Positions 2,872 through 60,175 of a stretch of DNA of 64,000 bases are shown one piece after another. The DNA is from a phage. How positions within the stretch are numbered: position 1 is the first letter of the stretch; each line of letters opens with the position of its first letter. The notes beneath the pieces are model-generated. The model saw only the letters and a program-made list of their open reading frames with translations. It was not told the DNA's origin and made no database searches. The translations under genes and the position numbers were made by a program. Location of the stretch: the sequence record PZ049694.1; one strand, written 5' to 3'.

Positions 2872-3531
2872 TTAACCTCGATTCATAAATGCATTAAATA
2901 TTTGGTCATCGACAGAAATTTCTAATTCGACTTCAATTGCTTCAGCCTTTTCTTCGGGTGGTAATTCGTATCCACACACTACAATTTTTTCATCGATATC
3001 AAAATATACAGAAGCAATATGATTAATGTTATTTTCAGTTAAGTCTAAATCAACATCAACATCTTTTTGACCTACACTTAGAGGATAACTAATACGGGTT
3101 ATTTTATTATCTTTAACAAAGAGTCCACCAACATACTCTGTACTACGTTTGAAGTTTACACGTTTCCGAATTGAAAGATATGATACATCTTTACCGTGAG
3201 CTCGGCTCATAGGACATAATGAATAGCTAGAATAGGAGATGTCAAATCCTACACCTTCAATATGAACCAACGCGTCATGATTAAACCAATTATAATCATA
3301 TGCCAAATCCATTATATTGTAATATGTGAAAGGCACAGGATTAACATCATATGTTGTACCTTTAAAATCTGCCCAGGCAACGATTTCGTTATCTTTAACA
3401 ATTACAAAAATTACACCAATATGATATCCGTTATTATTTTCATTCGGCGTTATATTATAACATTGCGCATTAGGAAATTTACCATATTTAAATGGCGCAT
3501 TTTTGTGCATGTAATAAATCATGTTATTCAC
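2872..3531 (-). CDS. hypothetical protein (219 aa)
   Basis: Minus-strand ORF between primase and spackle. Confidence 0.55.
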   Translation of the reverse strand: MNNMIYYMHKNAPFKYGKFPNAQCYNITPNENNNGYHIGVIFVIVKDNEIVAWADFKGTTYDVNPVPFTYYNIMDLAYDYNWFNHDALVHIEGVGFDISYSSYSLCPMSRAHGKDVSYLSIRKRVNFKRSTEYVGGLFVKDNKITRISYPLSVGQKDVDVDLDLTENNINHIASVYFDIDEKIVVCGYELPPEEKAEAIEVELEISVDDQIFNAFMNRG

Positions 3532-44062: not shown

Positions 44063-44070
44063 TATTTATA
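44063..44070 (-). promoter_or_regulatory. candidate late promoter (TATAAATA)
   Basis: Plus strand tatttata overlapping the tk stop, 25 nt upstream of the 43826-44038 start. Confidence 0.4.
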
Positions 44071-44647
44071 ACAACCCTGTCAAATCATTCCAATGCTTCC
44101 GGCATAATGACACATATCTATCAGTATCACCAATTTCAATTTGACTGCCATCTGTAATTGGAAGTCCGTCTTCCGTGACTCTAGCTACCATTGTGGCCTT
44201 TTTACCGCAATGACAGACACCTTTAAGTTCAACAAGCTTATCGGCAATAGCCATTAATGCTTGAGAACCTTCAAATAGATTACCTTTAAAATCTGTTCGT
44301 AGTCCATATGCCATTACCGGCACATTGTATACGTCAACAATACGACTAAGTTGATACACCTTTTCAGTAGTTAAGAATTGAGCTTCGTCAACAAATACAC
44401 AATGAATATCCTTTTGTGCTGCAGCCCATTTATAGAATTCAAAGATATCCATGTCTTTTGTAATTATATTGGCGTCCTGACGAATACCAATACGAGAGAC
44501 TATTTCACCTTTTGAATCGCGAGTATCAATAGCCGGTTTAAGAACTAATACACCCATGCCACGTTCTTTATAGTTATGTGCGGCTGTAAGTAATGAAGCA
44601 GACTTACCAGCGTTCATAGCGGCATATGTAAAAATTAAACTAGCCAT
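44066..44647 (-). CDS. tk: thymidine kinase
   Basis: 193 aa; P-loop MNAGKSASLL; C-terminal zinc cysteines CHCGKKA...CRKH. Confidence 0.9.
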   Translation of the reverse strand: MASLIFTYAAMNAGKSASLLTAAHNYKERGMGVLVLKPAIDTRDSKGEIVSRIGIRQDANIITKDMDIFEFYKWAAAQKDIHCVFVDEAQFLTTEKVYQLSRIVDVYNVPVMAYGLRTDFKGNLFEGSQALMAIADKLVELKGVCHCGKKATMVARVTEDGLPITDGSQIEIGDTDRYVSLCRKHWNDLTGLL

Positions 44648-45040: not shown

Positions 45041-45243
45041 TATTCTTCTACATGTTGTTTACGGCCTTTCTTATCGATAAAAGTATATTCAACGAATGTT
45101 CCGATGTAGTCTTTATCTACATCATGTGGACTATTAATTGGACATTTGGTACGACAAATGCGTTCCCATTGACGAATAATTACTGCCTTATTCTTTGGGT
45201 CATATGGATGTGGATAATGTATATTCATAATAATGGTTCCCAA
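45016..45243 (-). CDS. hypothetical protein (75 aa)
   Basis: Minus-strand ORF. Confidence 0.45.
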   Translation of the reverse strand: MGTIIMNIHYPHPYDPKNKAVIIRQWERICRTKCPINSPHDVDKDYIGTFVEYTFIDKKGRKQHVEEYCLKVTWL

Positions 45244-45722
45244 TCAACAATCACAATTTCTAGTTTAGTGGAATACGTATCTAAAATCTCTTCGATGACA
45301 TCCCAGTTTCCACCACCAATACCTGCACCAATTCTTGGCATATAAATTACAGGCTTTGTTATCTTATTCTTTCCGAATTCATTTAATTCTATTATACAAT
45401 TCATTAAAGCATAGTACTCAAAATTAGGTCCCGGCTCAAACTGTGTATAAAGATTAAAGCAATAAGCTTTATGGGTCTTAAAATATTTTTCATAAACCGA
45501 ATAAGTCCCGAGTTTAGACTTGTCTCCGAATTCGGTTTGAAGTTTATCGGCTTCTAAAATTTTTGGATAAGCCTTTGCTAATTGTCCTGCCACACCAGCG
45601 CCCATTGTATGAAAACAATTACACCCATGAGCAATATTATTACCTTTAGAAAACAGGGCGACAATATCGCCCTTGATATAGTTTTTAATCACTTGCTGCA
45701 AGTCCTCTAGTATAAGAGTCAA
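45225..45722 (-). CDS. macro-domain protein (ADP-ribose binding/processing fold)
   Basis: NIAHGCNCFHTMGAGVAGQLAKA and PRIGAGIGGGNWD resemble macro-domain motifs; TTG start in track. Confidence 0.55.
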   Translation of the reverse strand: MTLILEDLQQVIKNYIKGDIVALFSKGNNIAHGCNCFHTMGAGVAGQLAKAYPKILEADKLQTEFGDKSKLGTYSVYEKYFKTHKAYCFNLYTQFEPGPNFEYYALMNCIIELNEFGKNKITKPVIYMPRIGAGIGGGNWDVIEEILDTYSTKLEIVIVDWEPLL

Positions 45723-46032
45723 CTAGACGGTCCACCATAGAATTGCATGCTGCCTTATCTTTAGGTTCCGCCACCGAGCATTCTAATATTTGCCATTTTT
45801 TATAGTATCTTTTAATTAAGGTAGACGCCTTGAACCTACTAGACGCCCCATCTTTTTCTCCGTCTTTATACGCATATAACAATTTTTGTGAAAAATCTAC
45901 TTTACACTCTTGACTTTGACCACAATAATCAGATGCCGTTCTGTTTGTATACTCCGTTACATCAGTATATGTAGTATTAGCAAGAGCGTTAAATGAAACC
46001 AAGCCAACTATTAAAGCCAACATTTTGGTCAT
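45685..46032 (-). CDS. secreted protein (115 aa, four Cys)
   Basis: Signal peptide MTKMLALIVGLVSFNALA. Confidence 0.5.
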   Translation of the reverse strand: MTKMLALIVGLVSFNALANTTYTDVTEYTNRTASDYCGQSQECKVDFSQKLLYAYKDGEKDGASSRFKASTLIKRYYKKWQILECSVAEPKDKAACNSMVDRLVDSYTRGLAASD

Positions 46033-46571
46033 TCTTTTATTTCCAGTAGTTTGTTTGATTTAAGGTAATTAGCCTTTTCTAGGACTTCAGAAGCATATTT
46101 ACTTCCAGCACTCGTCTTCCATCCCGCATTATATGAGGATATAGCTTTTCTTATATCCCCGTTATGTATATTTAACCAATAAGAAAATTCGATATAAGCC
46201 CATCTGGCTGAATTAGACCGCTTAGATAGCATTTTCTTAATTTGGGCATCAGACATATTATAACCAAGCCGGTTAATTCTTGCCCTCATTGTTGGTAGAT
46301 AATTTTGGAACATTCCATACGCATGGTGACCTTTCTTATCTTTAAGATTAATACCGGCAGATGATTCCTGCCATAGTATTGCGGCCATTATGTATCCAAG
46401 TCCTTTCTTATGCATATTTTCATGCGTTTTAAATTTTCCATCCTTAGAAAACTGTTCCCCAAACTGATAAGCATAATTCAAGTTATCGAGTTGGACATTA
46501 CTAAAAGTATGCTCGGAGCTATGTGCTGATAACGAAAGAGCAAATAGACCAGCGAGTAGTGCTTTTCTCAT
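46029..46571 (-). CDS. periplasmic lytic transglycosylase-like protein (SLT domain)
   Basis: Signal peptide; LWQESS, GMFQ and YNAG motifs of family-1 lytic transglycosylases. Confidence 0.6.
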   Translation of the reverse strand: MRKALLAGLFALSLSAHSSEHTFSNVQLDNLNYAYQFGEQFSKDGKFKTHENMHKKGLGYIMAAILWQESSAGINLKDKKGHHAYGMFQNYLPTMRARINRLGYNMSDAQIKKMLSKRSNSARWAYIEFSYWLNIHNGDIRKAISSYNAGWKTSAGSKYASEVLEKANYLKSNKLLEIKE

Positions 46572-60020: not shown

Positions 60021-60097
<77 letters not shown>

Positions 60098-60100
60098 GAT

Positions 60101-60175
60101 TGGTGACCCTGGCTGGTTTCGATCCAGCTACCTATCAGTTATGAGCTGACAGCTCTCCCATTGAGCTACAGGGCC
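60101..60175 (-). tRNA. tRNA with CAU anticodon (Ile-lysidine type or Met)
   Basis: 75 nt cloverleaf: acceptor GGCCCTG/CAGGGTC, D-arm GCTC...GAGC, anticodon loop CTCATAA, T-arm GCTGG...CCAGC, encoded CCA. Confidence 0.8.

Follow-up and report, generated by a model that had tools for sequence, protein, structure and literature searches.

Introduction

Resistance to the DarTG2 defence has been described for T-even phages. T2 and T4 without adfA and adfN stay resistant to DarTG2, and a further factor was suggested by Johannesman et al.; AdfA and AdfN counter DarTG1, which modifies guanosine, and not DarTG2 (PMC11825919). In keeping with this, a T4 transposon library was applied to a DarTG2 host in the HIDEN-SEQ preprint of 2025, tk.4 was the single significant match, and T4 with a clean knockout of tk.4 proved DarTG2-sensitive (bioRxiv 10.1101/2025.11.20.689424). 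The gene was renamed adfM (anti-DarT factor Macrodomain) in the same preprint and a structural similarity of its product to M. tuberculosis DarG was noted. According to its authors, the enzymatic removal of ADP-ribose "seems likely", which was derived from the structural similarity only (bioRxiv 10.1101/2025.11.20.689424). No biochemical assay of the T4-type Tk.4 protein was found in the literature. Two further anti-DarT factors of this group of phages, AdfN (T4 gene 30.3, NADAR) and AdfA (T4 gene 61.2), have folds unrelated to that of AdfM.

Another phage protein, gp104 of PhiKZ, was separately named AdfM. In vitro, this protein takes off the ADP-ribose that DarT2 has placed on DNA, and it rescues DarT2 toxicity (PMC13309987, Cell Rep 2026). 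Among the cellular macrodomains, SCO6735 of Streptomyces coelicolor cleaves thymidine-linked ADP-ribose on DNA and guards against DarT. Its activity is abolished by the Q85A substitution and strongly reduced by N27S and G128E, and a water-mediated, lysine-independent mechanism was proposed by its authors (PMC9411070).

In the present study, a macrodomain gene of a T4-like phage is compared with these systems. The glutamine found in place of the lysine in its active site is the sole point which was not met in the literature consulted, the rest having already been described.

Results

Genomic context and orthology

The window, i.e. the whole 64-kb stretch of phage DNA that was analysed (PZ049694.1), originates from a Mosigvirus-type T4-like phage. 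The 3.1-kb surroundings of the gene shared 99.4% identity with Escherichia phage vB_EcoM_JQD51 and 97% with Mosigvirus phages, e.g. moskry. The coordinates of the features are presented in Table 1. The gene order tk, tk.1, tk.2, tk.3, tk.4, vs, vs.1, regB was exactly alike in T4, and the order tk.3/tk.4/vs was found in the window, moskry and T4. T4 Tk.4 (NP_049723) aligned with the product over the full length (155/155) with no gaps, 130 of the 155 residues being identical (84%). Due to the full-length identity and the same gene order, the gene was assigned as the positional ortholog of T4 tk.4 (adfM), and this orthology was observed directly in the alignment and the gene map.

The two genes are alike in the length of the product, in the site between tk.3 and vs, and in all the conserved pocket residues, which are identical. 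In contrast, the phage of the window is of the Mosigvirus type whereas T4 is a Tequatrovirus, and the gene starts with GTG instead of the ATG of T4. The final codons and the stop of vs differ as well, and the overlap between vs and tk.4 is GTGATTAA in the window and ATGA in T4. The tight packing and the start-stop overlaps suggest that the translation of vs, tk.4 and tk.3 is coupled along one operon.

The earlier note had placed the macrodomain protein near tk. The proximity is real, with three small genes in between, but it has no functional weight, as it reflects the T4-type gene order only. A functional link to tk was considered since DarT2 modifies thymidine, and it was rejected because the homologs of phages rV5 and Sf17 do not adjoin tk and lie in unrelated neighbourhoods. 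The closeness to tk is a matter of the T4-type gene order and not of a functional link.

By tblastn, homologs were detected in 2793 phage records of many groups, including T4-like phages of several hosts, Vequintavirus, Felixounavirus/Mooglevirus, and Pseudomonas, Vibrio and Aeromonas phages. Near-identical sequences exist in GenBank, some of them annotated as 'macro domain protein'. The homolog of the Mooglevirus Sf17 (L005:2483-3277) is 264 aa long and consists of the macrodomain and a C-terminal extension of ~110 aa. The PHROG 335 profile has a length of 422 positions, referring to longer architectures within the family.

The presence of the homolog in groups well outside the T4-like phages, e.g. 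in rV5 and Sf17, may argue against an alternative in which the protein erases or tunes the phage's own ADP-ribosylation by Alt, ModA and ModB, the RNAylation of host proteins by ModB included. ARH-type hydrolases are the enzymes that take ADP-ribose off arginine, and TARG1-class macrodomains act on esters of acidic residues and on nucleic acids. Alt, ModA and ModB modify arginine (PMC8120803), and because their marks are arginine-linked, the reversal of own marks by this protein is unlikely. Three ADP-ribosyltransferases of T4-type phages are described in PMC8120803 and PMC10468400, and a matching eraser would be biologically sensible. No phenotype has been reported for the reversal of the phage's own Alt, ModA or ModB marks, and this alternative was judged to be very improbable.

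In the HIDEN-SEQ preprint (bioRxiv 10.1101/2025.11.20.689424), no T4 gene was depleted more strongly in minimal medium than the neighbouring vs; this gene may matter under certain conditions and not be dispensable. In moskry (L001, 5030-5572 and 7158-8002), several unrelated small genes, the vs.1 ortholog among them, are labelled as 'endoribonuclease RegB'. The vs.1 ortholog is called a lytic transglycosylase protein in other records, and the RegB labels of moskry look like annotation-transfer errors. Elsewhere in the window, adjacent genes for tRNA-Arg and tRNA-Met were detected, as expected for the T4-like tRNA cluster. An ortholog of AdfA, 67% identical to the T4 protein, was also found; the alignment begins at its fourth residue, and the start codon is probably the ATG at 3522.

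Start codon and transcript features

The open reading frame delimited in the earlier note, 45225..45722 on the minus strand, was confirmed, and its translation contained KGNNIAHGCNCFHTMGAGVAGQ and MPRIGAGIGGGNW. Both motifs quoted for it were thus found, and their codons were checked against the nucleotide sequence. The 5' end of the frame was, however, set too far upstream. The T2- and T4-type homologs aligned with the translation only from residue 11, and the annotation of phage moskry gives the same 468-nt CDS for the ortholog as listed in Table 1. In T4, an in-frame stop is situated directly 5' of the ATG of tk.4, and the TTG is not conserved at the matching position. For these reasons, the true CDS likely begins with the GTG at 45692. 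The TTG start at 45722, which would give a 165-aa protein and a 38-nt overlap with vs, was rejected as the homolog alignments, the upstream stop of T4 and the existing annotations favour the GTG. The ten extra in-frame codons are probably not translated as a part of the protein. The GAGGA upstream of the start is conserved in T4 and moskry.

The hairpin inside the coding region of tk.4 was flagged as terminator-like by the scan. Its stem is identical in T4 and moskry, third codon positions included, and it forms in the folds of both the window and T4. A longer helix between the Shine-Dalgarno region and the sequence 3' of the 5' hairpin (z = -2.5) was dropped as a regulatory structure because it was absent from the T4 fold. 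Contacts between the T2 tk.4 transcript and the host small RNA ArcZ were recorded by RIL-seq in a 2026 preprint, the protein level being without a detectable change (bioRxiv 10.64898/2026.06.19.733364). The name 'putative thymidine kinase' given to tk.4 in that preprint is a mislabel.

Table 1. Positions of the tk.4/adfM ortholog, its motifs and other features in the window.
Feature	Position	Strand	Remarks
AdfA ortholog (T4 gene 61.2)	2872..3531	-	
tk	44066..44647		three small genes between tk and the tk.4 ortholog
ATGA overlap	45225..45228	-	tk.4 stop TGA with tk.3 start ATG; tk.3 boundary as annotated in moskry and T4
tk.4/adfM ortholog, likely CDS	45225..45692	-	155 aa, GTG start, TGA stop, one macrodomain
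PRIGAGIGGGNW (P-R-I-G-A-G-I-G-G-G-N-W)	45303..45338	-	second glycine-rich loop, predicted to bind diphosphate; codons read from sequence
Y82-T83-Q84	45441..45449	-	located by profile and MAFFT alignments
MGAGVAG	45585..45605	-	predicted first glycine-rich ADP-ribose-binding loop; codons read from sequence
HGCNC (H22-G-C-N25-C)	45615..45629	-	codons read from sequence
Hairpin	45655..45673	-	perfect 8-bp stem AGGGCGAU-AUU-GUCGCCCU, then a U-rich run; within tk.4 codons 7-13
vs/tk.4 start-stop overlap	45685..45692	-	GTGATTAA; tk.4 GTG 5 nt before the end of vs
vs (valyl-tRNA synthetase modifier)	45685..46032	-	neighbour of the tk.4 ortholog
Ten extra in-frame codons, TTG start	45693..45722	-	inside the 3' end of vs; probably not part of the protein
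GAGGA	45703..45707	-	Shine-Dalgarno-like, 10 nt 5' of the GTG start; read from sequence
vs.1 ortholog	46029..46571		
tRNA-Arg (anticodon tct) and tRNA-Met (anticodon cat)	60021..60175	-	adjacent

Fold and family assignment

The product matched Pfam Macro (PF01661) with 27.6 bits (E=3e-6), above the gathering score of 22, and the match spanned positions 2-117 of the 118 in the profile. The match to PHROG 335, which is labelled 'phosphatase', had an E-value of 4e-66. The AlphaFold2 model of the tk.4 ortholog was obtained with a pLDDT of 96, and the top Foldseek matches of the predicted structure were TARG1, Poa1p, DarG, BT1257 and SCO6735, all with a probability of 1.0. Sequence searches against solved structures resulted only in macrodomains of the ALC1/TARG1-like class, with BT1257 as the best sequence match. 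For the structure-sequence search, a family profile was built from 61 sequences, and the determined E-values were 1.7e-17 for BT1257, 1e-16 for TARG1, 2e-14 for SCO6735, 1e-13 for Poa1p, and 6e-12 and 4e-11 for DarG. In a separate comparison with solved structures, the figures obtained were 18.0 (BT1257), 17.4 (Poa1p), 17.1 (M. tuberculosis DarG), 16.6 (Thermosipho DarTG) and 16.5 (TARG1), followed by the coronavirus macrodomains as the next group with 13.7. The PDB searches yielded no experimental structure for the T4-type protein.

The macro fold of the ortholog, seen directly in the predicted structure, is established as far as prediction goes. The earlier note had proposed a macro domain and had named structure prediction beforehand as the refuting test; the fold was upheld by it, the nearest structures being solved macrodomains. 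The protein was accordingly classed, by its profile and alignment matches, in the Macro superfamily and in the T4 Tk.4 ortholog group. The similarity to DarG in the sequence profile was no greater than those to TARG1, Poa1p or BT1257, and therefore the substrate specificity is not readable from homology.

The 'phosphatase' label bears on a further alternative, in which the main job of the protein would be the processing of soluble ADP-ribose derivatives, i.e. ADP-ribose 1''-phosphate, O-acetyl-ADP-ribose or an ADP-ribose-based immune signal. The label was transferred and not measured; it goes back to the resemblance to Poa1p and to an old 'A1pp motif' remark in the T4 record. T4-type RNA repair relies on Pnkp and Rnl1 and is not known to yield ADP-ribose 1''-phosphate, which was counted against this alternative. 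Yeast Poa1p (PDB 6LFQ) differs from the phage protein by Ser instead of Gln at the catalytic-loop position and by a longer insert. The processing of soluble derivatives was proposed for phage Macro domains generally by Iyer et al. (PMC9503650), whereas the sole reported phenotype of the T4 ortholog concerns DarTG2. The idea of a ribose-phosphate by-product, also raised in the earlier note, gained no support beyond the Poa1p similarity. As the main function, the processing of soluble derivatives was considered improbable; as an additional activity it is possible. With 2793 phage records retrieved by tblastn, the widespread 'phosphatase' label is probably misleading for so common a phage gene.

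Pocket residues and the catalytic position

The active-site alignment was made with MAFFT and included 120 family members and five solved relatives, the PDB sequences being taken from HMMER outputs. The residues of the predicted ADP-ribose pocket were present, i.e. both glycine-rich loops, the conserved Asn and the Asp that follows the first strand, and the conservation of the active site was observed directly. Asn25, the conserved macrodomain asparagine, was found in 119 of the 120 homologs and is equivalent to Asn27 of SCO6735, an Asn of DarG and a Ser of TARG1. His22 was present in 117/120, with His24 of SCO6735, His32 of TARG1, His23 of Poa1p and an Asn of DarG as the equivalents. In the first glycine-rich loop, which aligned with those of DarG, TARG1, BT1257 and SCO6735, G33 and A35 were invariant (120/120). 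In the second loop, P119, I121, G122 and G124 were each found in 118 homologs, the other two being gapped; G122 and G124 correspond to G126 and G128 of SCO6735, and DarG and TARG1 also have Gly at both positions. The position of Gly126 was occupied by Ala in 88 and by Gly in 30 of the 120 homologs, by Ala in SCO6735 and BT1257, by Gly in DarG and by Asp125 in TARG1. D9 has an aligned Asp in Mtb DarG, TARG1, BT1257 and SCO6735, the corresponding residue of Taq DarG being Asn.

Gln84 was invariant in all the 120 homologs. It stands where DarG (K80) and TARG1 (K84) have their catalytic Lys, and corresponds to Gln85 of SCO6735 and to a Gln of BT1257. The same mapping was obtained with three independent alignments, namely the HMMER profile against TARG1/BT1257, BT1257 against SCO6735, and MAFFT. 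Because the invariant Gln84 stands at the position of the DarG/TARG1 lysine, the mechanism predicted for the T4-type AdfM is that of SCO6735 rather than that of DarG.

The likeness to SCO6735 (PDB 5E3B) extends over Q84 (Gln85), N25 (Asn27), H22 (His24) and G122/G124 (Gly126/Gly128). In contrast, the DNA-positioning Lys34 of SCO6735 is replaced by Ala32 in the phage protein, Lys89 has no aligned lysine, the loop following Q84 is of a different length, and the I-G-Q motif corresponds to Y-T-Q. Thus, as far as the alignments tell, the tk.4 ortholog shares the catalytic signature of SCO6735 but not its DNA-positioning lysines. The overall identity is low, 22% to SCO6735 by Foldseek and 27-29% to BT1257 (PDB 2FG1/2AFC), the close Bacteroides homolog of SCO6735. 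SCO6735 is a cellular gene under DNA-damage control and not a phage gene. The pI of the phage protein is slightly acidic, 6.3, compared to the basic 9.9 of SCO6735. The net charge was dropped as a test of DNA binding, being uninformative: PhiKZ AdfM is even more acidic and yet active on DNA.

Comparison with DarG, TARG1 and PhiKZ AdfM

The match to the NCBIfam DarG profile (NF048014) reached 29.6 bits, the cut-off being 250, and covered positions 4-146 of 338, i.e. the macrodomain part only; this equivalog cut-off is set for the macrodomain together with the C-terminal DarT-binding domain, ~340 aa. The same picture was obtained with the PADLOC DarG profile. Compared with DarG (PDB 5M31, 5M3I, 7OMU), the identity was ~20%, Lys80 of the P-T-K motif is replaced by Gln, and the phage protein has neither the C-terminal DarT-binding domain nor an adjoining darT gene. 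Filing the protein as DarG was rejected due to the low score, the length of 155 aa, the missing catalytic Lys, and tk.3 and vs as the neighbours in place of darT. In the case of human TARG1/OARD1 (PDB 4J5R), the dyad Lys84/Asp125 corresponds to Gln84/Gly126, and the phage protein is not of the TARG1 type.

PhiKZ AdfM is likewise a single phage-encoded macrodomain which counters DarTG2. It differs from the tk.4 ortholog by a DarG-like lysine motif, F-P-T-K-D-N-W (translated from the construct in PMC13309987), where the phage protein has Gln, and by its import into the phage nucleus. The BLASTP match between the two was limited to 23 residues, and the identity by profile comparison was ~20%. Due to this short match and the Lys motif, filing the protein with PhiKZ AdfM was rejected. 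Judging from the sequences, the two proteins named AdfM belong to different macrodomain subfamilies with distinct catalytic residues and have the fold class and the target in common.

These comparisons also bear on whether the tk.4 ortholog counters DarTG2 mainly by stoichiometric binding and blocking of DarT2, in the manner of ICP1 AdfB or of the C-terminal domain of DarG. In vitro, DarT is inhibited even by catalytically dead SCO6735 (Q85A), DarG (K80A) and TARG1 (K84A), most strongly by SCO6735 (PMC9411070), and ICP1 AdfB acts through direct binding (PMC11481870). The phenotype of the T4 tk.4 knockout fits toxin binding and the removal of ADP-ribose alike. However, the protein of 155 aa, with 29.6 bits against 250 for NCBIfam DarG, has no counterpart of the DarT-binding domain, and the invariance of the pocket and of the Gln at the catalytic position over 120 homologs, with 36-95% identity to the query, is a pattern to be expected of an enzyme and not of a toxin mimic. 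We therefore give little credence to blocking as the main mode of action.

Discussion

The reading we prefer, and hold to be probable, is that the tk.4 ortholog, a free-standing 155-aa macrodomain from the tk-vs block, frees the phage DNA of DarT2-made ADP-ribose and lets the phage escape DarTG2, against which its ortholog Tk.4/AdfM is required in T4. We infer the hydrolysis, its substrate and the T4-like behaviour of the phage of the window on DarTG2 hosts. The genetic evidence on DarTG2 comes from a preprint and concerns T4, not the phage of the window. The reversal of DarT-type ADP-ribosylation of DNA had been suggested in the earlier note, and its direction agrees with the 84% identical T4 ortholog, the knockout of which is DarTG2-sensitive. 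The anti-DarT idea is supported in this respect, but it had already been published for T4.

According to the proposed mechanism, the infection of a DarTG2 host would release the DarT2 toxin, which would put ADP-ribose on the thymidines of TNTC motifs in single-stranded phage DNA and thereby block replication. The phage macrodomain would grip the ADP-ribose via the two glycine-rich loops and Asp9 and hydrolyse the bond between ribose and thymine, resulting in normal DNA and in the escape of the phage. The chemistry would probably be lysine-independent and of the SCO6735 kind: Gln84, held by Asn25, may position the distal ribose for the attack of water, whereas DarG and TARG1 use a lysine instead of the glutamine at the catalytic position.

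The 64-kb window carries two distinct anti-DarT factors, the orthologs of tk.4/adfM and adfA. T4-like phages stack counter-measures against one defence family, AdfA and AdfN being directed against DarTG1 and AdfM against DarTG2. The glutamine in place of the lysine implies that the T-even and PhiKZ AdfMs are mechanistically distinct.

More tentatively, the T-even AdfM may be no captured DarG but an independently recruited glutamine-type macrodomain, kin to BT1257, SCO6735 and Poa1p, that perhaps acts on other ADP-ribosylated targets too; we regard this as possible, though on balance doubtful. If true, two unrelated macrodomain branches, the T-even AdfM and the lysine-type AdfM of PhiKZ, would have converged on defeating DarT2. 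The T-even AdfM might then also act, like SCO6735 and TARG1, on acidic residues of proteins, RNA ends or soluble derivatives, and would have a role beyond DarTG2.
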